IMG/VR virus record: IMGVR_UViG_3300025012_000032
Reading direction: 5' to 3' (one strand)
From: a virus
Lineage: Duplodnaviria; Heunggongvirae; Uroviricota; Caudoviricetes
DNA: 37,747 bases
The translations under genes were made by a program, and so were the position numbers. Below, piece by piece: positions 14,507 to 37,747 of the stretch; positions within the stretch are counted from its first letter, which is position 1; each line of letters opens with the position of its first letter. A model generated the notes under the pieces. It made no database searches, was not told the DNA's origin, and saw nothing but the letters and a program-made list of their open reading frames with translations.

Positions 14507-15499
14507 TTGGAAAAGCTAAAAGTATTTGAAGGTTTTGCAGGATTGGGTGCGGTTAGTAAAGCAATGGAGAGATTAAATATATGCCATGAACTGGTTGGAT
14601 TTTCTGAAATAGATAAATATGCAATTAAGTCATTTGGTTTAATACATAATGTAAATGAAGAATTAAATAATGGTGATGTCTGTCTGATAGATGAGACAAA
14701 ACTTCCAGATTTTGATTTGTACACGTTCGGCAGCCCTTGTCAAGATTTTAGTGTGGCTGGCAAACAAAAAGGGGCAACGTGGACTTGCAAAGATTGTAAT
14801 TATGAATATAATCCACTAGATGTTCATTATAGTAAACGAGATTCTTGCCCTATTTGTAATAAGCATAATATAAATAAAACGAGATCGAGTTTAGTTGTTG
14901 AAGCACTAAGGATTATTAGACATAAGAAACCAAAGTATTTGCTTATGGAAAATGTTAAAGGTCTTATAGGTAAACAATTCAAACCTAGTTTTGATAAGAT
15001 AATAACTGAATTACAAGAGTATGGATATAATATATATTGGGATGTATTAAATGCAAAAGATTATGGAATTCCTCAAAATAGAGAACGAGTGATCGTCATT
15101 AGTATAAGGAAAGATATTGATAATAATTCATTTAAATTCCCTGAAGGATTTGATAATGGAATTAGATTAAGAGACCTATTAGAATATGAAGTTGATGAAA
15201 AATATTATATAAGTCAAGATAAGACTGAAAAATTACTTGAACAATTAAAAGATAAAGAATTCTCTAATACTATAAGAGCAGGAGGAAGAGGTTCTTTAGA
15301 TAGACATCAGTGGGATATGGTTTGTGTAAATACAAAAATGCAAGATTTACAAACTAGAGAAGATGGTTTATCTTGTACATTGACTGCTTCGATGTATAAA
15401 GAACCTTTAAAAGTAGTAGAAGTAAGACCATGTATAACTCCTGTGATTGCATGGGAAATTAAAGAGTGTTACGAGAAGTCAGGTTGGCCTTGGAGTTAA
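14507..15499 (+). CDS. dcm: DNA (cytosine-5) methyltransferase, C-terminally truncated (no motifs IX/X), with a Zn-ribbon insert
   Basis: FEGFAGLGA (I), GSPCQDFS (IV), ENVKG (VI), PQNRERV (VIII); ends VRPCITPVIAWEIKECYEKSGWPWS with no LTPRE or GNS motif. Confidence 0.85.
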   Translation: MEKLKVFEGFAGLGAVSKAMERLNICHELVGFSEIDKYAIKSFGLIHNVNEELNNGDVCLIDETKLPDFDLYTFGSPCQDFSVAGKQKGATWTCKDCNYEYNPLDVHYSKRDSCPICNKHNINKTRSSLVVEALRIIRHKKPKYLLMENVKGLIGKQFKPSFDKIITELQEYGYNIYWDVLNAKDYGIPQNRERVIVISIRKDIDNNSFKFPEGFDNGIRLRDLLEYEVDEKYYISQDKTEKLLEQLKDKEFSNTIRAGGRGSLDRHQWDMVCVNTKMQDLQTREDGLSCTLTASMYKEPLKVVEVRPCITPVIAWEIKECYEKSGWPWS

Positions 15500-18857: not shown

Positions 18858-19736
18858 ATGATTAGACACGTAGGATTCGCTTGCATGAGTAAAAAATGCA
18901 ATACAAAATATCAAACATTTCGATTAGCTTCATTTAGTGAATACAGATTAAAACAAACCATTGCTCACAATCTCAATGAAACTGAGCGTACAATTCAACA
19001 TTGTATTTTAGAAGGAATTAAATTATTTAGACTAAGTTCTGATCTAGTTCCATTTGCCACGCATAAAATTATGAAAGATATTGATTATATGTCTTGGATG
19101 CAATCTGATTTAAAAAGAATTGGCAATATAGCAAAAAATAATAATATGCTATTATCAATGCATCCATCTCAAATGTGTTGTATAAACAGTCCAAAGTTGG
19201 ATGTTGTAAATAATTCTATTAAAGATTTAATGTATCATTATGATATTCTCAATGCTATGGGCCTTGATGATTTTAATATTATTATTCATGTTGGTGGAGT
19301 TTATGGGAATAAAAGTGAAGCAATGAAAAGATTTATTGATGTGTTTAATAATTTGCCTTTAAATTTGAGAAATCATATCTTGCTAGAGAACGATGACAAA
19401 AGTTATACCATTAGTGATATAATGGAAATACACAAGAATACTGGTGTGAGAATTGTGTTTGATTTTCACCATCATGTAATTAATAATAATGGTACTGAAT
19501 TGAATTTAGAAGCGATATTTGCCACTTGTGGGGTTGGTAATGTGCCTAAGATTCATCTTAGTTCACCTAAGAATATTAAGGAGTTCAGGAGTCATTCTGA
19601 CACGATTGATTTTAATTATTGTAGTGATTTCTTTGAGAAGTATAAGGGTTTAGAATTTGATGCAATGATTGAGGCTAAGGATAAGGATTTGGCTGTAGGA
19701 AAGTTTGTTGAGGATTATAGGAGGGAAATTTGTTGA
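18858..19736 (+). CDS. uvsE: UV DNA damage endonuclease (UvsE/UvdE)
   Basis: GFAC...FRLSSDLVPFATH...SMHP...IHVGG...LENDD...FDFHHH...KIHLSSP...HSD...MIEAKDKD. Confidence 0.93.
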   Translation: MIRHVGFACMSKKCNTKYQTFRLASFSEYRLKQTIAHNLNETERTIQHCILEGIKLFRLSSDLVPFATHKIMKDIDYMSWMQSDLKRIGNIAKNNNMLLSMHPSQMCCINSPKLDVVNNSIKDLMYHYDILNAMGLDDFNIIIHVGGVYGNKSEAMKRFIDVFNNLPLNLRNHILLENDDKSYTISDIMEIHKNTGVRIVFDFHHHVINNNGTELNLEAIFATCGVGNVPKIHLSSPKNIKEFRSHSDTIDFNYCSDFFEKYKGLEFDAMIEAKDKDLAVGKFVEDYRREIC

Positions 19737-21880: not shown

Positions 21881-22756
21881 TTGAATAAAGGAGTGATAAT
21901 TTTGAAATTGAAATGTAATTGTTGCGATGGAATTTATAATTCTCTTGATATTCATTTTACAAGTGCTTGTGATAATAATTGTTCACATTGTGTTGATAGA
22001 TGTTTTAATGGTTTAAATATTTCTAAACCAGATGTTGAAGCAATCGTTAATACAATTGTAAACAACCAAGAAGGGGTAGATGACGTATTATTTCTTGGAG
22101 GCGAACCATGTTTATATCTTGATGAATTAGTAGATTGTGTAACACAAATTAAACAGAAAACTTCATTAAAAGTATTTGTTACCACATCTGTTCCTAAAGT
22201 ATGTAAAACAGAATATGATAAGTTTTTAAGATTATTAGATTTGCTTGATGGAATAAATTTATCTGTTCAACATTATAAAGAAGATATTGCAGATAAAATA
22301 AGAAATACGATTTCTACATATGATAGGCAAGAATTTTATTCCTTGTTACCTCAAAAGGACAAAATACGAATAAATTTGAATATAGTAAAACCATATTTAT
22401 ATACTAAAGAAGATATAAGTGCATGTTTAAGACATTATGATTCTATGGGATTTAATTCTATAAAATTATCTGAAATACAACATGGGAAAGATGTATTTGT
22501 TTCTTTTGAAAAAGTATTTAGTATTAATTTAGGATCACCATATTCAGATGGATGTCAAACATATTTAAATATGAATAATATATTAGAAGGATTTAAGACT
22601 CCAGTTCTATTAAAAAGATCATGTTTCATGTGCGAAGATACTTTAAAAGTTTCTATTCATGATGGTATTAAAGTGGTTAGAAATTTGTTTAGGTTTGTCG
22701 AAAATAAGTATGGTGTAGTTTATGAAAATGGGTTATTAACGAAAGGATGGATATAA
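21881..22756 (+). CDS. Radical SAM protein A (extra Cys at both termini)
   Basis: CDNNCSHC (CxxxCxxC), FLGGEP, N-terminal CNCC, C-terminal CQT...SCFMC. Confidence 0.88.
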   Translation: MNKGVIILKLKCNCCDGIYNSLDIHFTSACDNNCSHCVDRCFNGLNISKPDVEAIVNTIVNNQEGVDDVLFLGGEPCLYLDELVDCVTQIKQKTSLKVFVTTSVPKVCKTEYDKFLRLLDLLDGINLSVQHYKEDIADKIRNTISTYDRQEFYSLLPQKDKIRINLNIVKPYLYTKEDISACLRHYDSMGFNSIKLSEIQHGKDVFVSFEKVFSINLGSPYSDGCQTYLNMNNILEGFKTPVLLKRSCFMCEDTLKVSIHDGIKVVRNLFRFVENKYGVVYENGLLTKGWI

Positions 22757-22757
22757 T

Positions 22758-22853
22758 ATGTATACAAAATTATTAAAAGTGGTAGTTAAATTACAAAGAA
22801 GACTGGCTGGACATTGTGGAGGTAGTTCTGGTGGTAGTGGGCATTGCTCATAA
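22758..22853 (+). CDS. 31-aa putative RiPP precursor MYTKLLKVVVKLQRRLAGHCGGSSGGSGHCS (not in ORF track)
   Basis: AAAGGA at 22742-22747, ATG at 22758, TAA at 22851-22853; lies between two radical SAM genes. Confidence 0.7.
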   Translation: MYTKLLKVVVKLQRRLAGHCGGSSGGSGHCS

Positions 22854-22902
22854 AATACTCAATTCATTTAGTAATAAAATAAAAAAATAAAGGAGAGATA
22901 AT

Positions 22903-24147
22903 ATGAAATTAGAAAATATAGGATTCTATACATTGAGTGACAATAGATGTAAAAGAACAAGTGTTGATTCTCAACTCATGAGATGTGAGCTAATATTGAC
23001 AGATGCTTGTAATTTTAAATGTCCATACTGTAGAGGTCTTAGGCCAGATTTAAAAGGTACAATGACACTAGAAAGAGCTAAATACATAATTGATTTATGG
23101 ACTAAAGATAATCTGAAAAATATTAGACTGTCTGGTGGAGAACCTACTGTTTGGAAAGACATTGTAGAATTAGTCAAATATATTAAATTCAAAGGCGTAG
23201 AACGTATTGCTATCTCTACTAATGGATATGCAGAAATAGATTTATATGAAAAACTAATCAAAGCAGGAGCAAATGATTTTTCAATATCCTTAGATGCTTG
23301 TTGTAGTGCTTTTGGTGATGCAATGGCAGGAGGAATTAATGGAGCGTGGGATAAGGTTATTTCTAATATTAAAGAAATATCTAAACTTACATATGTCACA
23401 GTTGGAGTTGTAGTTACTGAAGAAACTGTAAGTGATTTGAAAAACACAATTGAATTTGCTTCAAGTTTAGGTGTTGCAGATATTAGAATTATCTCTTCGG
23501 CACAATATAATCAATTGCTTGATGTTGCGAAAACAGTATCAAAAGATGTTTATGAAAAATATCCTATTCTTAAATATCGTATTGAAAATTTGAACAATCA
23601 AAGAAACGTCAGAGGATTACAAGAAACTGATTCACATAGATGTGGATTGGTTTTGGATGATATGGCAATTGCAGGAGATTATCATTTCCCATGTATCATT
23701 TATATGCGCGAGGGTGGAAATCCCGTAGGTAAAGTTGGAGAAAATATGAGACAAGAAAGATTAAAATGGATGAAAAATCATGATACTCATAAAGATCCTA
23801 TTTGTAAAAATAATTGTCTTGATGTTTGTATTGATTATAATAATAAATACAACAAATATAATATCGAGAAAACTAGATTGTGTAAAATTGATAGTTCTAA
23901 TTTTGATTGGTTGAAGTGGTCTGCTGGTAGTATTCATGATTTTGGAATTCCTTGTAGGTTTGATACTTTGACTCAAAACAATAGTAAGAAATTATTAGAG
24001 CAATATGCTATAGGATGGGCATATGGAGAAAGTATTGTTTGTAAACCAAAAGAAAAACATGTTGCAGTTATGTTCGAGAAAGATGATAATCAGTTTTGGT
24101 TTCATGTAAGAAATAGTGAATTTATGGAGATATTTTGTAATCAGTAA
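22903..24147 (+). CDS. Radical SAM protein B (MoaA/SPASM-twitch-like Cys cluster plus an extra C-terminal domain)
   Basis: CNFKCPYC, LSGGEPT, ISTNG, SISLD; C-terminal CGLVLDD...FPCIIY...CKNNCLDVC. Confidence 0.9.
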   Translation: MKLENIGFYTLSDNRCKRTSVDSQLMRCELILTDACNFKCPYCRGLRPDLKGTMTLERAKYIIDLWTKDNLKNIRLSGGEPTVWKDIVELVKYIKFKGVERIAISTNGYAEIDLYEKLIKAGANDFSISLDACCSAFGDAMAGGINGAWDKVISNIKEISKLTYVTVGVVVTEETVSDLKNTIEFASSLGVADIRIISSAQYNQLLDVAKTVSKDVYEKYPILKYRIENLNNQRNVRGLQETDSHRCGLVLDDMAIAGDYHFPCIIYMREGGNPVGKVGENMRQERLKWMKNHDTHKDPICKNNCLDVCIDYNNKYNKYNIEKTRLCKIDSSNFDWLKWSAGSIHDFGIPCRFDTLTQNNSKKLLEQYAIGWAYGESIVCKPKEKHVAVMFEKDDNQFWFHVRNSEFMEIFCNQ

Positions 24148-25609: not shown

Positions 25610-25972
25610 ATGTTCAGAAATTATAATCGAACAAAAGAAGAAGAGCATAAATTTAATTTATCATTTATTACATTAATAGTTGGAATAATTAATATATCTT
25701 TAATGTTTCTTGTTCTGCAAGGTGCTTATTCATTACATAGCCCCATTGAATTTGTTAGTGGATGTATTTTTCTATCAATTGGTTGGTATTGCTATATTGG
25801 TTATAAATTTGTAAAATCATTAGATAGAAAGGAAATTTATCATAGCAAAATTAATGATTATGATGAAGACAATATAATTGACGATGAGGTAAGGGAAGTA
25901 TTACTTCAATATCAAAAGGATAAAAGAGATGGGAAATTAGAGACATTTCCTTTGAGTGATTTAAGACAATAG
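25610..25972 (+). CDS. Two-TM membrane protein
   Basis: Two hydrophobic helices and an acidic tail. Confidence 0.7.
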   Translation: MFRNYNRTKEEEHKFNLSFITLIVGIINISLMFLVLQGAYSLHSPIEFVSGCIFLSIGWYCYIGYKFVKSLDRKEIYHSKINDYDEDNIIDDEVREVLLQYQKDKRDGKLETFPLSDLRQ

Positions 25973-25985
25973 GAGATGAAATAAT

Positions 25986-26324
25986 TTGCAAACACAAGGA
26001 TGTAAAATATCTAGTGAAGGAAAATTAAGTCTTTTGACGGGATGGTTTAAACAACGAAAAGAAGGTTATCATTGTTATTTTACTGATGAAAATAGTTATA
26101 GAGTAGAAGGATTTAAGATAAACAGATCATTTAGAAAAAGCAAAGAGCAAATTATTAAGGAATATGAAGAGTTGAAATTCAAAAGAAATGTAACATCTGT
26201 GATAATCGAAGAATTGTTAAAAACTGATGAGTTAAAAGATTATTTTGAAGCAAAAGAAAAATTAAGTTCGTTGAATGCTAAAATGGATAGATTAATGAGA
26301 GAAAGATTTGAAATCTCAAAATAA
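25986..26324 (+). CDS. Hypothetical phage protein
   Basis: 112 aa ORF (TTG start). Confidence 0.6.
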   Translation: MQTQGCKISSEGKLSLLTGWFKQRKEGYHCYFTDENSYRVEGFKINRSFRKSKEQIIKEYEELKFKRNVTSVIIEELLKTDELKDYFEAKEKLSSLNAKMDRLMRERFEISK

Positions 26325-26396
26325 CCCAACCTTGTAACCCTACTGTAGCAATGATTTTAAAACCAGTATTTCCCATAAAAATAAAATTTTATAGGT

Positions 26397-26621
26397 TTGG
26401 AAAGGAGAATAATTTTGGAATGTCCATATTGTGGTTATGAATTAAAATGCACAGATTACTATGGTAAGCGTCAAGTAGCAGAACATTATTGGTCGTACCC
26501 TCAGTCTTGGATAGAGAAAGAAGGAGATATTTTCAAATGTGATAATGAAGAATGCGAAATGTATCAAGAAAGTTTTTATACTGATTCAAGAGATGAATTA
26601 CATGAAGGTTATCCATGTTGA
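26397..26621 (+). CDS. Small zinc-ribbon protein
   Basis: CPYCG...CDNEEC...LHEGYPC. Confidence 0.65.
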   Translation: MERRIILECPYCGYELKCTDYYGKRQVAEHYWSYPQSWIEKEGDIFKCDNEECEMYQESFYTDSRDELHEGYPC

Positions 26622-27218
26622 TTTAATCAGATAAATGAGTTATTTAAAATGCTTTAAGAAAGAGGTAAAATTAAATGCTTAAAGGCCAAACAGGAACATT
26701 TATCTTACAAGCAGAAGATGGAGTGGTAAGATTATGTCATGATGCAGTTACTTGTAGTTATACTATTGGAATTAGAACTAATAAAGACTTTCAATGGAAA
26801 GATATAAGTGAAGAATTATATGAATTAATGATTAAAGAATTAGAAATTTAAGAAGGAAACAGATGGTAAAAGAACACATTCGAAGGATAAAGGAGACGTG
26901 TATTTAATGATTATTGTCGGAACGTGGCAAGAAATAGAAAGATTAAAGGATATGATTAAGTGTCCACACGAAGGAAAAGAATGTCCAAAGAGTAATATTT
27001 CATGTTGGGATTGTTTTGATGCAGAATATGATGTCAATCTTGATATTAAAGAATTGAAATAGATTCAGGTGAGAAACTTTAAAGGAAAGGAGGGAATACT
27101 TAATGAAATATCAAGAGTGCGTCCAATGCAAATGTAATACATGTGAAGATGAATATTGTAAGAACGAATCATGTAATGAAGGTTGCAGAGACAATAAATT
27201 TAACCCTGTTTTGATTGA

Positions 27219-27521
27219 TTGTCATGGATATTGTACGTTAGATTCACTTATAAAGGAGGAAATTTAATGAAGAAAACATATTGTGATGCATGTGAAAAAG
27301 AAGTAAAGCATAATTATCCTTTTACTTGTTTAGTACATATATTAGATGATGGTAAATATAGTGGTGGAGGATATGTAACCACTGACGAGGTTAATGGCAA
27401 GTGGTTGAGTGTATCAGGAAAAGAAGAATCAAAAGACCTGTGTTTAGAATGCTATAATAGAATTTATAGTTCTGCATGGGAAGAGTTTATAAAGATTAAA
27501 GAGGAGAATAAATTATTATGA
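27219..27521 (+). CDS. Zinc-finger protein (true start likely MKKTYCDAC after AAGGAGG)
   Basis: CDAC...LCLEC. Confidence 0.65.
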   Translation: MSWILYVRFTYKGGNLMKKTYCDACEKEVKHNYPFTCLVHILDDGKYSGGGYVTTDEVNGKWLSVSGKEESKDLCLECYNRIYSSAWEEFIKIKEENKLL

Positions 27522-27730
27522 TAAACAACATCACATGCCCTTATTATAAAAGCAAAGACACAAATATCAAAGAAATAATTTGGGTGTCTTTTAATCAAGA
27601 AAATGAAGGACTTGTAAAGATTATGCAATATTGTCAAACTTGTAAAAGTGAATATCCTGTATTGACTGAATTTAAATATGAAGTTATTAGTCAGGATTAT
27701 CAAGATAAGGAATTGATATTTAGAGATTAG
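27518..27730 (+). CDS. Small Cys-containing protein
   Basis: CPYY...CQTC. Confidence 0.6.
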   Translation: MINNITCPYYKSKDTNIKEIIWVSFNQENEGLVKIMQYCQTCKSEYPVLTEFKYEVISQDYQDKELIFRD

Positions 27731-27742
27731 GAGTGATTATTT

Positions 27743-28090
27743 ATGGATGACGAATTAGTTCAGTATTTTATCATTAATTCAGAATTAAACATGAGTGCAG
27801 GGAAGGTTTCAGCTCAAGTTGGACACGTTGCGACAATAATTACATATCATAGTGTTTCATTTAAAAAAGATATGTATTTAACTTGGTTGAGATGGTATCA
27901 AAAAGATCAGAAGAAAATAATTCTAAGAGGAAAGTAAAAGGATTTAGAGAAATTAATTGATGCAGGATTCTATTATATTAGAGATAATGGATGTAATGAA
28001 GTGAAACCAAATTCCCTTACATGTGTAGGACTTGAACCTATGCTTAAAAGTGAAGCACAGAAATATGTAAAGAGATTACAATTGTATTAG
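27743..28090 (+). pseudogene. pth2: Peptidyl-tRNA hydrolase type 2 (Pth2) with an in-frame TAA at 27935-27937
   Basis: QYFIIN.EL.MSAGKVSAQVGH...QKKIILRGK*KDL...IRDNGCNEVKPNSLTCVGLEP...KRLQLY. Confidence 0.85.
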
Positions 28091-28337
28091 ATTCCCAGAA
28101 AAGAATAGTTTTATATGGTTAGAAAGGAAATGATTGTTTGACTCAAATTAAGATTTTTAGTCGTGTTAATATTAATGATAGAATATCTGATTTAGAAGAG
28201 GATATTAATAAATGGCTTAATTGTAATGAAGATGAAGTGGAAGTGTTAGAAATTAAATGGCATTTTGAAAACACTAGGGTAGTAATGATAGTTTATAAAC
28301 TGGTTTAAACTAAGTATAAAAAAAGGAGTTAATTAAA

Positions 28338-28508
28338 ATGAGCAACATATGTCATTCTTGTGGAGAAGAACTTCCCATAGATCACGCTTGTAAAATGAGA
28401 ATTGAAGAAGATGGTAATATTTCTAGTTATCATATTTATTGTCCAGAACCCAAAAAGTGTCCTGATTGCGGTTATCATAGAAATGTATGTGAAGAATGTT
28501 GTGAATAA
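28338..28508 (+). CDS. Cys-rich microprotein (not in ORF track)
   Basis: AAAAGGAG RBS; MSNICHSCGE...CPDCG...CEECCE*. Confidence 0.6.
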   Translation: MSNICHSCGEELPIDHACKMRIEEDGNISSYHIYCPEPKKCPDCGYHRNVCEECCE

Positions 28509-28927
28509 GTTAAAACTTATAAAGGAGAGTTTAATTGTGTGTGAGAATAATAAAGAACATAAACATATTACGATTAATATTTTGCCTCAAAGTCCTGTTG
28601 CTTGGTTTTTCATAATGTGGATTGGAATATTTTTTTGCTTGTGCTTGGGGAGGTAAATAAATATTAAAGTAATAAGTTAATAATAAGGAGGAAAAATAAT
28701 GTTTAAATTAGAATTATCAAAAGTTTCAGGGATTTTAGTTGAGCAATCAAAATTATTTGAATGTGATTTAAAAACTGCGTGGGAAAAGTGGATGCATCCT
28801 GCGATTACAGAGCAATTTACATATGAAGAAGTTAGATTGTTTATAGAGGGGAATAAAAGGAAGTGTAATAGATGAGTTGTTATGCTTTTGAATGGGAATT
28901 TGGTAGATAAAATGATATGAGGAGTGT

Positions 28928-29641
28928 TTGATATTGAAATTACTAGGTGGTAGAGCAGGATACAATAGTGTAATGTTTGAATCAGAAACACATACTTCAA
29001 TAGCAATAAGAAAAGGTAATGATGTAGTAGTAGTAAACAAAAACATCAAGGATAATAAGGAGATAAAATTAGAGGAACTTATATATAAAATACCATTTGT
29101 AAGAGCGTATTGGATTATATTTAAGATTATATTTACAAAATTTGGTTTGTTATTATTGGCATTTAGTCTTATTTATTCTTATTGTTTGTACAATTTTGAA
29201 CCAAGCAGTCTACAAAACAGCAACTATCATAATTTTATTATATTGCCGATTTTAATGTTGTTGTTTAATAAATTCAGTAAAACGAAATATTATCATGGAG
29301 CAGAACATAAGGTAGTAAATGATTACGAGAAAAATGGAAAAGTAAAAATAGAAACGTCAATAAATCAAAGTTGTGTAAACGATGATTGTGGAACTAATTT
29401 ATGGGTAGGATTAATGATAATTTCTGGATTATTGGTTACATTCTTTCATTCTGGAGCAATGTTATTAGGATGGGGTATTACATATGAAGCAATGAGATCA
29501 GATAATAGGGTTGTAATGTGGATTGTTAAACCGATTTATTTTGTAGGAAGTTTATTGCAGAAATATGTTTTTACTAGTGAACCAAGTATAGAGCAATTAG
29601 AGGTTGCTGTGAGGGCATTTAAGGGGTTGGAGGAGGAATAA
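28928..29641 (+). CDS. DUF1385 (YqhQ-like) membrane protein
   Basis: GG.AG.N.V...IPFVRAY...YHGAEHKVVN...CGTN...QKYVFTSEP...LEVA. Confidence 0.85.
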   Translation: MILKLLGGRAGYNSVMFESETHTSIAIRKGNDVVVVNKNIKDNKEIKLEELIYKIPFVRAYWIIFKIIFTKFGLLLLAFSLIYSYCLYNFEPSSLQNSNYHNFIILPILMLLFNKFSKTKYYHGAEHKVVNDYEKNGKVKIETSINQSCVNDDCGTNLWVGLMIISGLLVTFFHSGAMLLGWGITYEAMRSDNRVVMWIVKPIYFVGSLLQKYVFTSEPSIEQLEVAVRAFKGLEEE

Positions 29642-29644
29642 TAA

Positions 29645-30037
29645 ATGTTAGGAAAGTATCTTAAAGACCTTGGTATAAAAGAGGATAATACTCCTCAAGG
29701 GTGGAATAAAGATGATTCAAGACAAGAACGATGGATTAAAGAAAGAGAAATATATGGTTTTGATGAAAAAGAAACTTGGTCAATGGATTTTACATTTAAG
29801 CTATGGTTGTATGAAAGATTGTCTATGTATAATGAAGTAAATGGTATTGACACATCTTTTCATAAATACGAGTTTAAAGGTGAGACAATTACGTTTCAAG
29901 AATGTATTGATAGGATGCTGGATGGGTTGAAGATTGAGTTGACTGTTGACGAATATAGAAGGACTGAAGAGCAGAAAGAAAAAGTAGAAGATATAGTAAA
30001 TATATTTGCTTTGTGTTTGCCTAGTTTGTGGTGGTAG
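29645..30037 (+). CDS. Conserved phage hypothetical protein
   Basis: YGFDEKETWSMD...FALCLPSLWW. Confidence 0.7.
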   Translation: MLGKYLKDLGIKEDNTPQGWNKDDSRQERWIKEREIYGFDEKETWSMDFTFKLWLYERLSMYNEVNGIDTSFHKYEFKGETITFQECIDRMLDGLKIELTVDEYRRTEEQKEKVEDIVNIFALCLPSLWW

Positions 30038-30160
30038 GTGATTGGAATATAAGGGATGTGACTCGGAATGTAAAAATAAATATTTAATTATATGAATAGG
30101 ACAAAATGAAATTGTCTATAATATAATCACAAGGAAATAAAAAAGGAGTGTGATTATATT

Positions 30161-30559
30161 ATGCAAAATGTAATAAATAAAGTTCAGCATGAGATTAAAA
30201 GAGGTGATATTTTTCTAGCAAATCTAGGTGAAGGAATAGGTTCTATCCAAGGTGGTTTTATGCGTCCGATGATTGTGGTAGCGAATACAATGTGCTGTAA
30301 GTATTCTAGTGTAATTCATGCGGTGCCAACGACAACAAAATCCAAAAAGTATATCCCTACGCATGTAGAAATTTCAATCAATACTGGATTAAGGATAGTT
30401 TCTATAGCTCTTTGTGAACAAGTACAACTGTTAAATCGAGCTATGTTCATAGAAAAAATCGGACATTGCGATAATTACATAATGGATAAGATTTCAAATG
30501 CATTGAGAATACAGTTTGATATTGGTGAGATTAAAAATAATGTTGCTTATGCAAATTAA
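30161..30559 (+). CDS. PemK/MazF-family protein
   Basis: IKRGDIFLANL...GSIQGG.RPMIVVAN...AVPTTT...THVEI...SIALCEQVQ. Confidence 0.88.
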   Translation: MQNVINKVQHEIKRGDIFLANLGEGIGSIQGGFMRPMIVVANTMCCKYSSVIHAVPTTTKSKKYIPTHVEISINTGLRIVSIALCEQVQLLNRAMFIEKIGHCDNYIMDKISNALRIQFDIGEIKNNVAYAN

Positions 30560-30581
30560 GAAGGAGAGATATAATTAGATA

Positions 30582-32183
30582 TTGGCTATAAGAAAAACAA
30601 CAGAACAATATAAATTAGAATTAGAAGAAGTAAATAAAATTAACAACACCAATATAAAATTAAAAGAGGGGATTGAGTATGAAGGTGCATTAACAAAAAT
30701 ATGGCATATCTGCTCTTGTGGTAAAGATTGGTTTTCTACACCTAGTAGTATAATATCTTTAAAATCCAAATCATGTGGTTTATGTTGTTCCTTTGCAGAA
30801 AAAGGAATTAATGATTTGGGAGAAGATTTTTTAGAAAAATATTGGGATTATAAAACAAATGATGAATTAGGGATTGATCCGTGGAAAATAAGTCATAGAT
30901 CAGAAAAAGATGTGTATATATTTTGTAAAAAAGTAGATTATCATGGTAGTTATAAAGTGCGATGTGCTGATTTTAGCACAGGGAGTAGGTGTGGTTATTG
31001 TCAAGGATACTATTTAGTACATCCACTAGATAGTTATGGTCAGTTTTTAATAGACTCATTTGGAATTACAGCGTTAGAATTGTATTGGGATTATGATGAA
31101 AATATAATTGATCCTTTTAAAATTACAAAGCAGTCAAATAAAAAGGTATATATAAAATGTCAAGTAAAAGAATATCATGGGAGTTATGGGGTAAGATGTG
31201 GAGATTTTGTAAAAGGGGATAGATGTGGATATTGTGGAGGTAAAAAAGTACATCCATTAGATAGTCTAGGGACATTATATCAAGAAGTATTAGGAATATG
31301 GTCTGATATAAATAAAAAGTCTCCTTATGAATATATGTCTGGAAGCGACGAAGAAGTTTGGTTTAAATGTGGTAATAAGAAGCATGAAGATTACCAAAAG
31401 AGAATATATAACGCAGTAAATTGTAATTTTAAATGTCCAACATGTTCACAAGAACAAAAAGAATCTGTTATGGCATCCACATTAAAACAAGTGTTGAGAT
31501 GGGAATACAGTCATACAGAATGGGAATTCGATGCAGGATTTAAAATACATAATAATATAAGCAGATATGATATATATGTTCCAGAATTGAACAACTTATT
31601 AATAGAATGTCAAAGTGAATACCATGATAATGACAAACGAATTAAAGTAGATCAACTTAAAAAAGAATTTGCTATTAATAATGAATATGAATATATAGCA
31701 ATAGATAAAAGAGATTTTACTATAATAGAAATATTGAGATTTTTTATACCGCATATAGATAAAATCCCAGATTATGTACAGATAGACAAAAATACTACAA
31801 GAAATTGGGATATAGAAAAAGCTCAAAAACTACTCGATAGTGGTCATACATATGCAGATATAGCTAATATATTAGAAACTTCAGTTACATCAATACGTGC
31901 CAGTGTAGGTGGCAATTGGTTAATTAAACCAAATAATTATCAAGTACAAGGTGCAAATATTGCTTGTTTATCTATGGATAATAGTTTAATAAAAACATAT
32001 AATTCTGTTACATCTGCTGCCAAGGATTTAGGAAAGGCAAATGGAACAAGTATTAGTTCTTGTTTAACCAAAAAACCTCGTTCTGATACAGGTAAAATAC
32101 GTGAGGCAGCCTTTGGATTTAAGTGGATGTATCTAGAAGATTATGAGAATATGATTAAAGATCAAAATAATAAACCTCCGTAG
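30582..32183 (+). CDS. Free-standing homing-endonuclease-like protein: zinc-ribbon (DUF4379-like) repeats, PD-(D/E)xK nuclease, NUMOD1-like tail
   Basis: Repeated C..H..Y...C.YC units; RYDIYVPELNNLLIECQSEYH; TYNSVTSAAKDLG...AFGFKW. Confidence 0.72.
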   Translation: MAIRKTTEQYKLELEEVNKINNTNIKLKEGIEYEGALTKIWHICSCGKDWFSTPSSIISLKSKSCGLCCSFAEKGINDLGEDFLEKYWDYKTNDELGIDPWKISHRSEKDVYIFCKKVDYHGSYKVRCADFSTGSRCGYCQGYYLVHPLDSYGQFLIDSFGITALELYWDYDENIIDPFKITKQSNKKVYIKCQVKEYHGSYGVRCGDFVKGDRCGYCGGKKVHPLDSLGTLYQEVLGIWSDINKKSPYEYMSGSDEEVWFKCGNKKHEDYQKRIYNAVNCNFKCPTCSQEQKESVMASTLKQVLRWEYSHTEWEFDAGFKIHNNISRYDIYVPELNNLLIECQSEYHDNDKRIKVDQLKKEFAINNEYEYIAIDKRDFTIIEILRFFIPHIDKIPDYVQIDKNTTRNWDIEKAQKLLDSGHTYADIANILETSVTSIRASVGGNWLIKPNNYQVQGANIACLSMDNSLIKTYNSVTSAAKDLGKANGTSISSCLTKKPRSDTGKIREAAFGFKWMYLEDYENMIKDQNNKPP

Positions 32184-32252
32184 AATACATAATTATTAAT
32201 AAATACATAGACTAAAAATAAATTACAATAGTAAAGGAGAGATACAAAATAA

Positions 32253-32951
32253 ATGGATTTAATTACACTAGCAACAAAAACAACATATAAATTGCTTAAA
32301 GTAGATAATATAATTGATTTGTTTGATCAAAATGATTTCAATAAAGTTAAGAAAGTAGTAAAAAAATATAGGAATATGGATATTGAGGCAACAAAATCTC
32401 AAGTACAACAATTAGCCGAAAATGGAATTAGAAATTTTTGGAGCGAAGTGTTCAAATATATAATTGTATTGTCAATTGCAAGTTATTTTAATATATTTAC
32501 CCCTACTTTCTTTGTAATGAATGCCTTCTCTGCCCTCAGAGCATTGGCTGGAGGAGTACATATGTCAACCATAGGAAAATGCTTTGCAATGATGGTTCTA
32601 TTCTTCTTATCACTAGGATATCTAATTAGCATATTACATATAAATACGTTAATATTAGTAGTAGGAATATCATTTGGATCTATGTGGAACGTATATATAG
32701 CAAAAAAATATTCACCACAAGAAAGACCAGATAAATCAGATAAAGATTGTGACCGTGGTAATATAAAGAAGTATAAGACAATAAAGTTTATTAAATTCTC
32801 ATATATAATTAGTATGATATTAATATTGTTTACTCAAAAATACATAATTGGAATTAGTATATTTGCAGGTGTTTTACTTGAGATGGTAACAATTACACCT
32901 ATGGGAACGAGAGTTTTCCAATGGATAGATGGTAAGAAGGTGATTATGTGA
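32253..32951 (+). CDS. agrB: AgrB-family autoinducing-peptide maturation protein
   Basis: LRALAGGVHMST.GKC (AgrB R..GG.H...C catalytic signature), multi-TM, YSPQ. Confidence 0.85.
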   Translation: MDLITLATKTTYKLLKVDNIIDLFDQNDFNKVKKVVKKYRNMDIEATKSQVQQLAENGIRNFWSEVFKYIIVLSIASYFNIFTPTFFVMNAFSALRALAGGVHMSTIGKCFAMMVLFFLSLGYLISILHINTLILVVGISFGSMWNVYIAKKYSPQERPDKSDKDCDRGNIKKYKTIKFIKFSYIISMILILFTQKYIIGISIFAGVLLEMVTITPMGTRVFQWIDGKKVIM

Positions 32952-33574
32952 TCGAAGTAGTAGTGTTTACGTTCATTTTTGCGTGGTTCAAGGGATATAG
33001 ATGGAAGGTATTAAATTTGTTTAAGCATTGGAGTATATATCCTATTGCATTTACTTGTTTATTGCATATCTACATTATCTATTTGATGATGCATGGAGAA
33101 TATTGGTTTATGGAATATGCCAAATACATAAAAATTGTATCTATATTATTTTATTTAGGTTTGATTTGTAAATATAAACTATTCGACATATCTATCTTTA
33201 AGAAAATTAATATTAAAGAGAACACTATATTAACCCATTTTACATCTCCTGTTTCTTTAGGTGTGTTATGTATGGGTATAGGATCTGTCTTAAATGTTAT
33301 CGCTATGAAATTTAACGATTCAAAAATGCCTGTTTTTGCAAGTGTAAGTTTCGGTACAGGATATTCAAAAATAGATATGTTTGATAAAATGTTACAATAC
33401 AAAGATTTCCATATATTTGGAAGTAATAATACTAATCTAATATTTTTGACCGATTACATAGATGTTTTTATATCTATTATGAGCATAGGAGACCTACTTA
33501 ATAGAGTTTTTGTTGTTTTGGTAATATATTACTCAATAAAAGTATGTTATCATAAATTAATAAATAATATTTAG
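32948..33574 (+). CDS. DUF5317-like membrane protein
   Basis: G..LN.IA.KFN..KMPV and TNLIFLTDYI...SIGDLL pattern; ATGTGA-type overlap with agrB. Confidence 0.65.
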   Translation: MIEVVVFTFIFAWFKGYRWKVLNLFKHWSIYPIAFTCLLHIYIIYLMMHGEYWFMEYAKYIKIVSILFYLGLICKYKLFDISIFKKINIKENTILTHFTSPVSLGVLCMGIGSVLNVIAMKFNDSKMPVFASVSFGTGYSKIDMFDKMLQYKDFHIFGSNNTNLIFLTDYIDVFISIMSIGDLLNRVFVVLVIYYSIKVCYHKLINNI

Positions 33575-33603
33575 TTGACAAGCGATGAAAGGAGGTGTAT
33601 ACT
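33575..33603 (+). promoter_or_regulatory. Sigma-A promoter TTGACA-N17-TATACT (TG adjacent)
   Basis: Near-consensus hexamers at 33575-33580 and 33598-33603. Confidence 0.75.
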
Positions 33604-33636
33604 TATCACATAGCAAAGAAAAGTTTAGAGGAGTAG

Positions 33637-34437
33637 ATGATTATGTTGGAAAATATTATTCATGGTGCATTAAGTTGTATTTGTATCACAATTCCAGAAT
33701 TTATGTTTATGATAATTGTTACATTAAAACTAATGAAAAGAAAAGAACTGTTGGATTTATATAATATAAAAAACAATACTATATCAATTTTAAAAGTAGT
33801 GATTCCTTCAGCATTTTTATTAGACATTCTAAATTATATTATCAAAACACCTCCAACCATAAATAAAACAATATCATTTATTACTTTATACATATTTTTA
33901 ATTATTGTACTAAGTACAAAAGAACATTCATATGTTGAGTATTCAAAATTGAAAGAAAAAGCCTTTAAATATTTTACAAAAAGCATATTACTTGCAATAG
34001 CAATTGAATCAATAACTTATCCAATTATTTTACAATTAACTAATAAAAATTATGAGGAAATTAAATTGAACTTCTATTTAGTTATTATATGTTCATTAGC
34101 ATCAAGGATAATAAACATTGTAATAATTTGTTATATTCTTATAAAAAAGAATGACAAATTTCAAATGGACTTAGGCGATTATATATTAAATAACAAATTT
34201 TTTATGAGATCAACGTCTGGAATAACCATAGGATTACTACTATATGAGATATATTTTGTAAAACTAATAATTTACAATAATTTATTATCTGTCATTGGTA
34301 ATATATACGAACAGTTGTTTATAGTAATAGGTTCTACCTTTTTAATTCCTGCGTTAATAACCACATTAGTTTATTCTTATATAAATTATTGTGTTATGCT
34401 TAATAGATGTGAGAAGCAGACTGTCAGAGATGACTGA
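33637..34437 (+). CDS. Multi-TM membrane protein, AgrC-sensor-like, without a kinase domain (paralog 1)
   Basis: About 6-7 hydrophobic segments, no H-box or ATPase domain; aligns by eye with 35678..36469. Confidence 0.6.
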   Translation: MIMLENIIHGALSCICITIPEFMFMIIVTLKLMKRKELLDLYNIKNNTISILKVVIPSAFLLDILNYIIKTPPTINKTISFITLYIFLIIVLSTKEHSYVEYSKLKEKAFKYFTKSILLAIAIESITYPIILQLTNKNYEEIKLNFYLVIICSLASRIINIVIICYILIKKNDKFQMDLGDYILNNKFFMRSTSGITIGLLLYEIYFVKLIIYNNLLSVIGNIYEQLFIVIGSTFLIPALITTLVYSYINYCVMLNRCEKQTVRDD

Positions 34438-34476
34438 TCTGATTTTTCAAATATATTATAAAAGGAGGTGAAAACA

Positions 34477-34584
34477 ATGAAAAAGAATATCGTAATTGGT
34501 TTTGTGGCAATCGCCGCTTTTGCAGCAGTAATGTCCTCTGCTATCATTTGGAATCAATCAGAAACCCCTAATTGTATCGCTTAG
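34477..34584 (+). CDS. agrD: AgrD-like cyclic autoinducer propeptide, 35 aa (not in ORF track)
   Basis: AAAGGAGGTG RBS; MKKNIVIGFVAIAAFAAVMSSAIIWNQSETPNCIA*: amphipathic leader, S-x-x-x-W core and Q-x-E-x-P tail as in AgrD; linked to agrB. Confidence 0.75.
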   Translation: MKKNIVIGFVAIAAFAAVMSSAIIWNQSETPNCIA

Positions 34585-34599
34585 TACATACCCAATTTT

Positions 34600-34628
34600 A
34601 AGGAGGGAGTTTTATACTCTCTCCTTTT
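34600..34628 (+). terminator. Intrinsic terminator after agrD
   Basis: AAGGAGGGAGT-tttat-ACTCTCTCCTT followed by further T residues. Confidence 0.7.
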
Positions 34629-34656
34629 GAATTATAAAATAATTTATAAATACCTA

Positions 34657-34685
34657 TTGACATACTAACATCATTGCTGTATCAT
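34657..34685 (+). promoter_or_regulatory. Sigma-A promoter TTGACA-N17-TATCAT for the HTH-MazF gene
   Basis: Hexamers at 34657-34662 and 34680-34685. Confidence 0.7.
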
Positions 34686-34740
34686 TGTAAATATAAAGTA
34701 TGTATTCAGAAAATTTATATTTACAATTTATGAAGGGTGG

Positions 34741-35568
34741 ATGATTAATATGTTTGGATTAAGAAAGAAGAGTGAATTAGTCAAATCAAATGAGGTAAAG
34801 GATTTTAAAAAACTCGCTAATTTGGTAAAGATTGCTGTCGGATGTAATACGGTTTCAGAATTTGCAGGGAGAAATGGAATACCAAATTCGGCTAAAACCA
34901 TAGCTAACATTATGCATGAAAAAATAACTACATACCCAGAACTTTGGCTTCTTAAAAAAATTGCTTTAGGTTCAGAATTTAGAGTCTCATTTAATGATTT
35001 AAGAATCGCGTGCGGTTATAATTTAAACGATACAGGAGTTGATCTAAGAAGTGTAAGTGCAATGAGAGGGTGGATCGCATTATGTGATTATGGAATTGTT
35101 GCAGGGAGTGAGCAATCGGGAGTTAGGCCGTCCCTAATAATTTCCAATAATGTCGGAAATTGTCGAGGTACTATTTTAATGGCAATCCCTTTATCTAGTA
35201 AAATAATGAAAAATACTATGCCGACCCACGTAAGAATATCTCCTCAAGAATGCGGATTAGCTCAGGAATCTGAAATTTTAGTTGAGCAAATGCGAGTGGT
35301 ATCAAAAAGTCGGTTGATGATTGATGGTTATATCCAACCAATTTGTGAATGTCCCGAAGATGTTCTTCGTAAGGTGGAAATCGCAATCATGATAGAAACT
35401 GGCATGGTTCACACAAAGGCTAAAGAATCTACTGTAGATAGATTCTTAAACAAACTTAATGAGTACGTAAACAAAGAGGAAGAGAGTCGTCTTGCTCATA
35501 TCAGAAGTGATAACTTTAATAATAACTTTAATACACCATTATCACAGCAACAAAGGGTAGCATATTAG
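34741..35568 (+). CDS. N-terminal HTH-like domain fused to a PemK/MazF domain
   Basis: C-half RGWIALCDYG...GSEQSGVRPSLIISNN.GN...AIPLSS...THV...SEILVEQMRVVSKSRL; N-half XRE-like (VSEFAGRNG...TIANI...LKKIA...LRIACGY). Confidence 0.75.
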   Translation: MINMFGLRKKSELVKSNEVKDFKKLANLVKIAVGCNTVSEFAGRNGIPNSAKTIANIMHEKITTYPELWLLKKIALGSEFRVSFNDLRIACGYNLNDTGVDLRSVSAMRGWIALCDYGIVAGSEQSGVRPSLIISNNVGNCRGTILMAIPLSSKIMKNTMPTHVRISPQECGLAQESEILVEQMRVVSKSRLMIDGYIQPICECPEDVLRKVEIAIMIETGMVHTKAKESTVDRFLNKLNEYVNKEEESRLAHIRSDNFNNNFNTPLSQQQRVAY

Positions 35569-35583
35569 AATGAAAATAAAATT

Positions 35584-35642
35584 GATGGTCATTATATAAA
35601 TTCATAAATATTTATCACACAATGATTTTATAATGACCATCT
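35584..35642. other. 13-bp perfect inverted repeat with a 33-bp spacer
   Basis: GATGGTCATTATA (35584-35596) / TATAATGACCATC (35630-35642). Confidence 0.75.
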
Positions 35643-35677
35643 CTACAATCAAAATAAAATAAAAAGGAGTAACTAAC

Positions 35678-36469
35678 ATGCAAACACTATCCCTACCCCA
35701 CATCATCCTAAACATAATATTCACATCGCTCCCAGAAGAAGGATTCGTCGCAATAATAACACTAATCTTCCTAAAACTAAATAACCTCCTAGACATTTAT
35801 ACATGGAATAGAAGTCTAAAATGGATTGCTCTAGCTGTATTACCAGTATCTATCCTTATAAACATCTTCAAATACATAATTCTTGTTCCAAAGCAAAATA
35901 TGATGATATCAACCATGATTCTAATGATACTACTTATGGAATTTATAGTCCTAAACAACAGTTTCAATATAACTATCTCCCTAATACTAAAAACAGCAAT
36001 TTACACAATCGCAGGATTTGTCATTGTAGGACTAGTAGAATTATCATATTGTCCATTTATATTATCAATAGTTGATAAACCAATATCATTCTTCAATGAC
36101 AATGTTTTCTATAATTTTCTATTAGGTATCCCTGCGAGAGTATTATATTTATGTGTAATTTCGTTTGTTGTAATGAGAAGAAATAATTCAGTTCATGTTG
36201 ATTTATTTAGAGCAGTATTTAAAAACAAATTCTTTGTATTTAGTTTTATAACAATTGTATTGGCTAGAATTTCTGCAATTGCATATGTTGTAAAACTAGT
36301 AAACAATAATCATATTCTAATTAATCTACAAATTATGGATCAATTAATCATTATGGTTGTAACAATGTCTATTCCAGTAATATTGGTTACTTGGTTTTTG
36401 ATGTTTGTTAATAATTTATTGTGTAAAGAGCAGATGAAGTTTCAGACTTATGAGAATATGATTAATTAA
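35678..36469 (+). CDS. Multi-TM membrane protein, AgrC-sensor-like, without a kinase domain (paralog 2)
   Basis: Shares PE..F..I.TL..K...LLD.Y, YII..P, DL......NKFF and QL.I with 33637..34437. Confidence 0.6.
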   Translation: MQTLSLPHIILNIIFTSLPEEGFVAIITLIFLKLNNLLDIYTWNRSLKWIALAVLPVSILINIFKYIILVPKQNMMISTMILMILLMEFIVLNNSFNITISLILKTAIYTIAGFVIVGLVELSYCPFILSIVDKPISFFNDNVFYNFLLGIPARVLYLCVISFVVMRRNNSVHVDLFRAVFKNKFFVFSFITIVLARISAIAYVVKLVNNNHILINLQIMDQLIIMVVTMSIPVILVTWFLMFVNNLLCKEQMKFQTYENMIN

Positions 36470-36507
36470 GGTGGAAAGGTGATAATCAAGTGTATAAAAT
36501 AAATTAT

Positions 36508-36596
36508 TTGACATTGTGCAATCAATAATGTTATAATAATAAATATAAAAGTAATCAAGCATCTTCTTGACGTATCGGCATATTATATATTATAAT
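36508..36596 (+). promoter_or_regulatory. Two tandem sigma-A-like promoters (TTGACA-N18-TATAAT with TGn; TTGACG-N18-TATAAT)
   Basis: 36508-36537 and 36567-36596. Confidence 0.6.
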
Positions 36597-36669
36597 AGCA
36601 TTGCGTATTATTAACCAATACATAGCAACATAACTTGTTGCTGATATGTCAAAAGGAGGAATAAATATT

Positions 36670-37747
36670 ATGAAACAAGATCGTCAAATTCTTGAGGATA
36701 TTCTTAATTTAGTCATTGAAGATTATGCTAATGACAATCAAATTCAAGAGCAGGTTGTAGGTAAATTATTAGAACGAGGTATACCGAGGGGCAGAACTAC
36801 AGGTATATTCACTAAAGCAATTCCATTGGTTTATGTTGAAGAAATTGAGTTGTGTTTATTCACAAAGTATCTCTATGGGTATACTCATCGAATAGAAATA
36901 AATCCAGATGAGTTTTTTACAGAGATTGAATTGTCTTCTTCAGAATCATATCAAAAGTTAGAAAAAGAAAAGGCTAAATATATTTTGTTACACAATGTTG
37001 ATCAAATAGGTGATAATCAATGGTTATGTACAATGGAAACATATCAGAATATCGGTGTTTATATGGGAAATGGATTATTGACTTATAACCCCAACACTCA
37101 AAGACAACTTCTTAAAAGGAGAAGTGGAAGCAGAATTGTCGAATCTATTAATATTGATAGTGAAAAGGTATTAGAAATAGCTACGTCAATGTTAGATAAT
37201 AGTTTCTGTCCAAATGCAATTATTTGGAATATTCGTAAAATAAATGGACAAAAACAAAAATATCACTATGATTCTAAAGCTAGAACATTGTTAATTGAAC
37301 CAGATAATGTGTCTACTTTGGTGGACATAATTGACGGAGCAAACAGAACTTGTGGTATGCTTAAAACAGTAGAAACTAAGCCTGAGATTAATAGAGTAAC
37401 ATCTATATATATTCATCATGTCACAGAGGAACGTGCCAATCAAATAATTCGTCAAGAAAGTTTGGCTGCTCCCATTGAAAAAGAATGGGTAAACTATAAA
37501 AACACCGCTAACCCAAATATGGAAGTAGCAAAAGCTATAAACAGTCACCAAAGCAAGAATGATATGTTTAATCGCATAGCCTTTAACGAAAAAGAATTAA
37601 AAGTTGAAAACAAATTAATGACATTTGACACTCTATCAAAAACAATTGAGTTTATTTATGATCTTAAAGAAGAACCAGCTATTAGAACAGAAGAAGTTGA
37701 GAATGATATTATTGAAATATTTAATAATGTCATTGGTCTCTATCATT
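36670..37747 (+). CDS. DGQHR/DndB-like (ParB-fold) protein, SPbeta YopQ-like; runs off the window (not in ORF track)
   Basis: AAAGGAGG RBS; MKQDRQILEDIL...FCPNAIIWNIR...LVDIIDGANRTCG, a variant of the IDGxHR motif. Confidence 0.65.
   Translation, partial: MKQDRQILEDILNLVIEDYANDNQIQEQVVGKLLERGIPRGRTTGIFTKAIPLVYVEEIELCLFTKYLYGYTHRIEINPDEFFTEIELSSSESYQKLEKEKAKYILLHNVDQIGDNQWLCTMETYQNIGVYMGNGLLTYNPNTQRQLLKRRSGSRIVESINIDSEKVLEIATSMLDNSFCPNAIIWNIRKINGQKQKYHYDSKARTLLIEPDNVSTLVDIIDGANRTCGMLKTVETKPEINRVTSIYIHHVTEERANQIIRQESLAAPIEKEWVNYKNTANPNMEVAKAINSHQSKNDMFNRIAFNEKELKVENKLMTFDTLSKTIEFIYDLKEEPAIRTEEVENDIIEIFNNVIGLYH

Follow-up and report, generated by a model that had tools for sequence, protein, structure and literature searches.

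Gene content of the region upstream of a YopQ-like gene

The IMG/VR record IMGVR_UViG_3300025012_000032 is a Caudoviricetes sequence of 37,747 nt, referred to below as the window. Its 3' part contains genes of an Agr-type peptide system: an AgrB-type peptidase, an AgrD-type propeptide, a seven-transmembrane (7-TM) protein of an unclassified family, a DUF5317 membrane protein and two genes with a MazF fold. The gene that follows them resembles yopQ of phage SPbeta, and the next gene, past the window end, encodes an MrpR-like protein. As judged from the sequences, this is a conserved, kinase-less cyclic-peptide cassette of the Agr type placed directly upstream of an SPbeta-type YopQ-MrpR repressor pair. 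The genes of the region are listed below (Pfam E-values in brackets).

30161..30559, plus strand: stand-alone gene of the MazF/PemK fold (132 aa), 5'-most in the cassette (PemK_toxin, E 7.6e-20)
30582..32183, plus strand: HNH/treble-clef zinc-finger endonuclease with a NUMOD1 tail (DUF4379, E 2.2e-16, and NUMOD1; also phrog_559, HNH endonuclease, E 7e-26)
32253..32951, plus strand: AgrB-type membrane peptidase (AgrB, E 4.7e-24)
32948..33574, plus strand: DUF5317 membrane protein (DUF5317, E 7e-12), with a 4-nt overlap with the agrB stop
33637..34437, plus strand: 7-TM membrane protein TM1 of an unclassified family, with agrD always next (seven helices in the AlphaFold2, AF2, model)
34477..34584, plus strand: AgrD-type propeptide, 35 aa (ribosome-binding site, RBS, AAAGGAGG 7 nt upstream)
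34741..35568, plus strand: gene fusing a helical domain to MazF (PemK_toxin, E 4.3e-21, residues 109-217)
35678..36469, plus strand: TM2, an orphan paralogue of TM1 (26% identity, E 7e-17) that lacks an accompanying peptide gene
36670..37747, plus strand: 5' part of a YopQ/SroE-like gene of the DndB family, running off the window end

The initial annotation, made on positions 33575-37747 (a piece that leaves out agrB), likened the terminal open reading frame (ORF) to YopQ/DndB, read its IIDGANR stretch as a variant of the DGQHR/DndB motif and proposed looking for a YopR/MrpR-like repressor downstream. All three points were borne out. The ORF has an RBS-supported start at 36670 (RBS 9 nt upstream) and an alternative start at 36646. 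It matches phrog_5732 (E 1.5e-50). Its tblastn matches include CST029 of Clostridium phage c-st (E 2e-15), which carries the annotation of a YopQ homologue, yopQ of SPbeta (E 1e-8) and, in phages Perkons and E3, proteins named 'DNA sulfur modification-associated'. DNA past the window end was read through locus L003 on a 113-kb groundwater-metagenome contig; positions 1-12070 of L003 are 100% identical to window positions 25678-37747. The complete protein encoded there has 461 aa and scores above the cut-off for Pfam DndB (E 9.8e-11). BLASTP aligns it with the 460-aa YopQ of SPbeta (E 3e-22, 24% identity over 412 aa) and sets I-I-D-G-A-N-R opposite V-L-D-G-Y-H-R. The DndB domain is common to this gene and to the Dnd phosphorothioation system; however, the motif here is D-G-A-N-R, not DGQHR, and dnd genes are not adjacent. 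On sequence grounds we assign the gene to the YopQ branch and not to the Dnd system. The 334-aa gene directly after it carries both MrpR Pfam domains above their cut-offs (E 4.4e-18 and 3.9e-6), and its product matches YopR (E 4e-15). Two of the conditions under which the initial annotation would fail, an ORF with no relation to YopQ and a missing repressor, are therefore not what the sequence shows.

AgrB and AgrD are predicted to make a cyclic peptide

AgrB cyclises the AgrD core and releases it. The window AgrB carries R-x-x-A-G-G-V-H-x6-C, and 12 phage loci, as well as the AgrB of the C. difficile phage phiCDHM1, all keep the general form of this motif, R-x-x-(A/S)-G-G-x-H-x6-C, unchanged; we take its His and Cys to be the catalytic residues H77 and C84 of S. 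aureus AgrB. A tblastn search of 50,697 phage records with the window AgrB returned no match, missing even phiCDHM1 AgrB, and is too insensitive to speak for absence. The AgrD sequence divides into a hydrophobic leader, a predicted 5-residue lactone ring (S-A-I-I-W) and a 10-residue tail (N-Q-S-E-T-P-N-C-I-A). Clostridial autoinducing peptide (AIP) rings, serine rings included, share this layout (PMC12312760), and the proline motif in the AgrD tail has been proposed as the AgrB recognition site (PMC8748961). By sequence, then, AgrB and AgrD together should yield a five-membered lactone with the serine ring S-A-I-I-W.

The rings predicted in the phage loci are SAIIW, SMVVW, CTFVW, CLAAW, SWLML, SMFFS, SWLFS, SWAFS, SAMWT, SAFWT, SAMWS and SHSML. 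Each is followed by (H/N/Y)-Q-(P/S)-x-x-P, except in three loci with Q-P-E-T-L tails. Most phage AgrD tails also have a conserved Cys 3-4 residues from the C-terminus (P-x-C-I-A or P-x-C-M-K; window positions 34570-34584), which is not seen in the bacterial AgrDs compared.

A 7-TM protein family is linked to AgrD

In every related locus an AgrD-like peptide is encoded directly after the 7-TM gene, and an AgrD-like ORF lies downstream of this gene in every context read, four bacterial ones among them. The 7-TM/AgrD linkage is the firmest new fact of the analysis. TM1 has no sequence match in Pfam, NCBIfam or PDB, and a Pfam search with 10 family members was also blank. Its AF2 model has seven transmembrane helices and high scores (predicted local distance difference test 95.2, predicted template-modelling score 0.90), and the positive-inside rule applied to the loops would place the N-terminus outside and the C-terminus inside. 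Foldseek comparison of TM1 with Swiss-Prot and PDB gave generic 7-TM noise only (template-modelling score ~0.2). Against clusters of the AlphaFold database it gave TM1's own family plus weak 'histidine kinase 7TM region' and GHKL matches (E >0.1), and a wide VIA-align search gave Z <=7.5, the range expected of helical bundles.

An exhaustive profile search collected 167 representatives of the TM1 family. The best 150 of these 167 are all <=326 aa with no kinase fusion, and the family proteins of 250-326 aa consist of membrane segments throughout or of membrane segments and a short tail. In an alignment of 114 sequences the only nearly invariant feature is a Pro-Glu pair in helix 1, and no His, Cys or Ser is conserved; with this pair as the only such feature, the 7-TM protein does not look like a protease. 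In a maximum-likelihood tree TM2 of six phages forms one clade (support 100/99), sister to an AgrD-linked TM1, and the TM1 clades track the ring sequence. TM2 is missing from loci L009, L011, L020 and L023.

The same 7-TM family followed by a typical AgrD occurs on bacterial chromosomes (L012:6978-7103, L030:5997-6113 and L031:6938-7054, with rings CMWGF, SFYFI and SIFWV, respectively). L012 belongs to Ruminiclostridium cellobioparum; its peptide ORF is uncalled and is followed by an Opp oligopeptide transporter. The gene order at L030 is AgrB, 7-TM, AgrD. The bacterial 7-TM proteins have an additional helical C-terminal tail of ~50 aa.

Two MazF genes accompany the peptide genes

The short MazF aligns with B. 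subtilis EndoA/MazF (4MDX, E 6e-17) and keeps the Arg and Thr aligned to R25/T48. The fusion aligns with MazF of B. anthracis and B. subtilis (E 7e-16), keeping the Arg and having Ser at the position of EndoA T48. We take R25 and T48 to be the catalytic residues of B. subtilis EndoA. A short-MazF homologue opens the cassette in every related locus, and ~40 homologues of the fusion all have the same fused length. These homologues also all end in a conserved Q-R-V-A-x-x-A that comes after a low-complexity stretch. The AF2 model of the fusion has a five-helix N-terminal domain at residues 22-91, MazF at 108-222 and a long C-terminal helix at 229-259. The N-terminal domain has no sequence match in Pfam or PDB; language-model scores of 0.83-0.87 point to a helix-turn-helix (HTH) of the Cro/C1 type, which we treat as a lead only. 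No MazE-like gene was recognised nearby, and the 130-aa ORF upstream of the short MazF has no Pfam match; it may be that the fusion's own extensions act in cis.

The cassette is conserved and exchanged as a unit

We surveyed what precedes yopQ homologues in close relatives and in loci reached through single proteins only. Besides the window, 10 distinct phage loci have the same gene set ahead of YopQ-MrpR (11 loci in all), a recurrence that chance does not explain. The loci fall into two gene orders, and 7-TM identity goes down to ~25-30%. Seven loci, each again upstream of YopQ-MrpR, have the second order: DUF5317, 7-TM, AgrD, fusion, AgrB. The DUF5317 gene is directly upstream of the 7-TM gene in all phage loci.

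Two comparisons show how cassette and repressor genes combine. Locus L015 is close to the window on the repressor side (MrpR 96%, YopQ 85%, TM2 89% identity) and distant in the cassette (AgrB 46%, DUF5317 55%, TM1 36%, MazF fusion 62%), where the ring is CLAAW. L010 shows the reverse, with AgrB 90%, DUF5317 87% and fusion 81% identical to those of the window and YopQ and MrpR at only 23-27%. Within the L010 cassette TM1 stands at 61% against 81-90% in its neighbours, with differences scattered along the protein and not in particular loops, and the ring differs at 3/5 positions. These alignments show that the cassette is exchanged as a unit between near-identical repressor backgrounds and that the 7-TM protein and the peptide diversify together. 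Both patterns are those of agr specificity groups and arbitrium alleles, and they argue for joint action of the peptide, the 7-TM protein, AgrB and the fusion.

The HNH endonuclease gene between the short MazF and agrB is present in L010, L014 and L023 and missing from L009, L011 and L015. This is the pattern expected for a homing endonuclease, and by sequence we regard the gene as an optional selfish insertion.

No Agr-type kinase or response regulator was found

Canonical agr systems signal through the AgrC kinase and AgrA. Searches of five related phage records, of which CheckV rates two as 100% complete, gave neither a HATPase_c_5 nor a HATPase_c domain; histidine kinases of all kinds and LytTR domains of the AgrA type were likewise not found. 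The 46 kb read around the window likewise have no AgrC-type ATPase domain.

Comparison with arbitrium, phage and bacterial agr systems

The initial annotation compared the locus with SPbeta, where aimR and aimP are followed by yopM to yopR, an order that agrees with the annotation of NC_001884. It placed AgrBD and a phage-encoded MazF-fold gene in the slot of aimR-aimP-aimX. This holds for the position of the cassette, which is directly upstream of the repressor genes and kept across diverged phages, but not for the genes in between: no counterpart of yopM, yopN, yopO or the YopP integrase-like gene stands between cassette and yopQ, the only part of the genome searched for them. In Perkons and E3, unlike in the window, an integrase-like gene does stand upstream of the yopQ homologue. 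The description of the system as non-arbitrium is upheld by the AgrD type of the peptide; a search of the five related records with SPbeta AimR was also blank, though run with no positive control.

SPbeta and phi3T nevertheless resemble the window in having phage genes for a secreted peptide directly upstream of homologous YopQ and YopR/MrpR. Arbitrium further resembles the cassette in that peptide and partner diversify between related phages and in its connection to MazF: in phi3T arbitrium acts via the host MazF, whose activity favours lysogeny (PMC10769878). The peptides differ, being of an AgrB-processed cyclic AgrD type in the window and derived from a linear, Sec-exported hexapeptide precursor in arbitrium. 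MazF is phage-encoded in the window, in two copies, whereas it is host-encoded in arbitrium systems. The SPBRE sites to which SPbeta MrpR binds include those of the aimR and yopM promoters (PMC10516654), and lysogens transcribe yopQ and yopR (bioRxiv 10.1101/2021.11.22.469490). A repeat search for an SPBRE-like operator gave nothing convincing.

A known case of agr genes in a phage is phiCDHM1, in which their function is still unknown (PMC3901668). This phage, with agrD, agrB and agrC, shares with the window an AgrB, a serine-ring AgrD and the lack of AgrA; its AgrD ring S-V-W-Y-I is followed by N-Q-P-K-M-P (an N-Q-P-x-x-P tail), the layout of the window AgrD. However, phiCDHM1 has a full AgrC kinase, and its agr genes follow the lysis genes, are encoded on the opposite strand and stand 6.7 kb away from the gene annotated as repressor. 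In contrast, the window cassette has no recognisable kinase, adds 7-TM, DUF5317 and MazF genes and abuts the repressor operon.

The canonical agrBDCA loci of Staphylococcus, Listeria and Clostridia have the AgrB motif, the AgrD plan of leader, 5-residue Cys or Ser ring and proline tail, and the allelic specificity groups in common with the cassette. They differ from it in having AgrC and AgrA, neither of which was seen in the related records searched, while the phage AgrD tail is short (10 residues) and often contains Cys. The split agrD2-agrC2 locus of C. autoethanogenum (PMC8748961) resembles the bacterial loci L012 and L031, where a peptide gene likewise has a membrane partner and AgrB is elsewhere; the partner is a histidine kinase in C. 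autoethanogenum and the 7-TM protein in L012 and L031.

In phage c-st, CST027-CST030 resemble the window in being a MazF-fold gene, one further gene, a YopQ homologue and a YopR homologue. The MazF domains of c-st and the window are related (E 1e-12), but the extension is C-terminal in the c-st protein and N-terminal in the window fusion. CST028 is unrelated to the 7-TM protein.

In the literature searched, we found no paper on Agr genes next to repressors of the SPbeta type, on a 7-TM protein that partners AgrD without a kinase, or on DUF5317 in whatever setting.

A candidate communication system at the lysogeny switch

We propose that the cassette is a communication input to the lysis-lysogeny decision or to prophage maintenance, and put the probability of this at about one half. 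The phage is a strong candidate for having a peptide channel of another type than arbitrium. The link to lysis-lysogeny is a candidate one, drawn from position and from analogy with arbitrium. The lactone would accumulate with infected or lysogenic cells and report their density. The 7-TM protein would sense it in place of AgrC, and the MazF fusion would bind DNA or cleave RNA and in this way bias the YopQ-MrpR switch toward lysogeny or hold the prophage. Such an output of the fusion onto the switch would parallel the route that phi3T arbitrium takes through MazF.

Several points weigh against this proposal. Morons and defence genes that prophages express are also typically found next to a repressor. 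TM1 shows no recognisable relation to the AgrC sensor domain: hhalign against the phiCDHM1 AgrC N-terminus gave a probability of 4%, and there is no fold match. The 7-TM protein could therefore be a processing or export factor rather than a receptor. No repeated operator motif joins the cassette promoters to the repressor; repeated 11-mers in the intergenic DNA were ribosome-binding sites only. The window AgrD itself is below the TIGR04223 cut-off (E 0.073; 13.3 bits when read as 38 aa, with the 35-aa reading unmatched), and its tail, Q-S-E-T-P, is of the form Q-S-x-x-P, unlike the Q-P-x-x-P of other AgrDs. The cut-off is 19 bits, which the collinear L009 and L011 orthologues pass with 23.9 and 25.8 bits, respectively. 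In a subset of the fusion homologues the aligned catalytic Arg is replaced by His (G-G-I-H-P). Finally, c-st has MazF-YopQ-YopR with no AgrB, AgrD or 7-TM family member in the region. The link between MazF and the repressor thus needs no peptide system, and is older or broader than the peptide system.

If the cassette does serve communication, we place the 7-TM protein as a receptor, rather than a maturation or export factor, at slightly under even odds. A stricter form of the proposal is a self-contained circuit without a kinase. In it, a new family of 7-TM receptors would sense the lactone and signal, with no phosphotransfer, directly to the DNA-binding/MazF fusion, which would set the SPbeta-type switch; exchangeable 'pherotype' cassettes would make the channels private, the orphan receptor beside the repressor genes would allow the phage to listen to other phages, and the bacterial 7-TM/AgrD pairs would be an unrecognised branch of Agr. 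We regard this elaboration as doubtful.

Alternatively, the phage may manipulate or eavesdrop on host quorum sensing: its AIP would be read by an AgrC- or VirS-type kinase of the host, altering host physiology or lending the phage a host sensor, and the part of the 7-TM and DUF5317 proteins would lie in processing, export or immunity rather than in sensing. In line with this, neither a kinase nor a LytTR regulator was seen in the related phage records that were searched. In Clostridia, signalling by agrBD loci often passes through unlinked kinases (PMC8748961), S. aureus AIP maturation needs a second membrane protein, MroQ (PMC12312760), and the same idea has been put forward for phiCDHM1 (PMC3901668; review PMC11945551). 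However, the 114 aligned 7-TM sequences lack the conserved His, Cys or Ser of a protease, and an orphan paralogue without a peptide suits a receptor better than an exporter. Moreover, the rings diverge strongly among close phages, which would break recognition by a fixed host receptor. We therefore consider host quorum sensing an unlikely target of the peptide.

Less probable again is an island for defence, superinfection exclusion or addiction, in which two MazF toxins are restrained by the fusion extensions, the membrane proteins or the peptide. MazF expressed from the prophage would abort rival phages or stabilise a plasmid-like prophage, and adjacency to the repressor would reflect co-expression in lysogens only. 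Consistent with such an island, the residues that align with the EndoA catalytic Arg and Thr/Ser are retained in both MazF domains, no MazE-like gene was recognised near them, each unit has its own strong consensus promoter, and PHROGs classes the relatives as 'moron, auxiliary metabolic gene and host takeover'. The MazF of c-st, too, lies beside YopQ-YopR, and the c-st prophage is a plasmid. But this leaves unexplained why AgrB, AgrD and a co-diversifying 7-TM protein are constantly included and swapped jointly with the fusion. In addition, the MazF of phi3T is itself part of the lysogeny decision, so that an island of this kind would overlap with the communication proposal and not exclude it.

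That the cassette is a mobile accessory module, functionally unlinked to the repressor genes and inserted by chance at a permissive intergenic hotspot upstream of yopQ, agrees with the coming and going of the homing endonuclease and other extra genes in the region and with recombination of cassettes independently of the repressor genes, but we judge it very improbable, because independent landings would not be expected to keep this neighbourhood in 11 distinct loci through rearrangement and deep divergence.

To our knowledge, arbitrium is the sole peptide system acting between phages whose part in lysis-lysogeny has been worked out, and it occurs only in elements of the Bacillus group. The cassette would place a chemically different, cyclic AgrD lactone system in the same slot, next to homologous repressors, in phages likely of Clostridia. 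If it is functional, the slot would be a general port for signal input to the SPbeta-type switch, a phage-encoded MazF would be tied to the decision, and the orphan bacterial 7-TM/AgrD pairs would gain a testable function. Phage c-st carries a botulinum toxin gene and shares the MazF-YopQ-YopR core, and understanding the switch may therefore help to explain the stability of such prophages.

Promoters, terminator and leader of the cassette units

The intergenic DNA of the cassette contains the following sites.

33575..33603, plus strand: promoter-like site TTGACA, 17 nt, TATACT before the 7-TM/agrD unit (11/12, consensus matches only)
34600..34629, plus strand: hairpin downstream of agrD, interpreted as an intrinsic terminator (stem of 10 bp, loop of 7 nt, then TTG)
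34657..34685, plus strand: promoter-like site TTGACA, 17 nt, TATCAT before the MazF fusion (11/12 consensus matches)
36508..36596, plus strand: two tandem consensus promoters before the yopQ-like gene (12/12 with extended TG; 11/12)
36624..36642, plus strand: inverted repeat with 7-nt arms and a 5-nt spacer in the leader of the yopQ-like gene, after the -10 box and before the RBS (read from the sequence)

The agrD hairpin is not among the sites listed by the consensus scan, and the last two bases of its stem belong to the four T's before TTG. Its stem is kept in L009 and L011 with base changes on both arms. The -35 hexamer of the fusion promoter is invariant in five aligned loci, and both tandem yopQ promoters are kept in L015, L016, L020 and L022. 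The inverted repeat of the yopQ leader, which could be an operator or a hairpin of the 5' untranslated region, is kept in five loci. L023 (7430-7660) has a different inverted repeat in the same place, and this suggests a structure or operator that co-evolves with a partner. A further inverted repeat, of 26 nt with 81% complementarity and a 17-nt spacer, lies at 30106-30174, where it covers both the -10 region of a promoter-like site and the short-MazF start codon; possible roles are those of an operator or of a hairpin that blocks translation.

Phage and host context

The window has a G+C content of ~28% and a strong bias of genes to the plus strand. Its relatives in IMG/VR reach 227-230 kb, two of them being rated complete by CheckV, and no near-identical DNA was found in the isolate phage collection. 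Among RNA runs, none was listed as containing the DNA of the window. Base composition, best phage matches to c-st and bacterial homologues in Ruminiclostridium point to Clostridia, and the sequence is that of a large, uncultured, temperate-looking groundwater phage with a probable host in this class.

Other genes in the window are phage-like: a Bro-N gene and genes for an AEP-type (TOTE-like) primase, a C5 cytosine methylase and a UvdE UV-endonuclease (6973-8496, 14507-15499 and 18858-19736). Two adjacent radical-SAM/4Fe-4S proteins of 291 and 414 aa are encoded in the phage early region at 21881-24147. In G005, the record that contains L023, a 541-aa frame with a serine-recombinase (Resolvase) domain is found at 640-1083, at the extreme end of the contig, reminiscent of SprA at the end of the SPbeta prophage. 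A short tyrosine-recombinase ORF of 187-193 aa is present in three other relatives.

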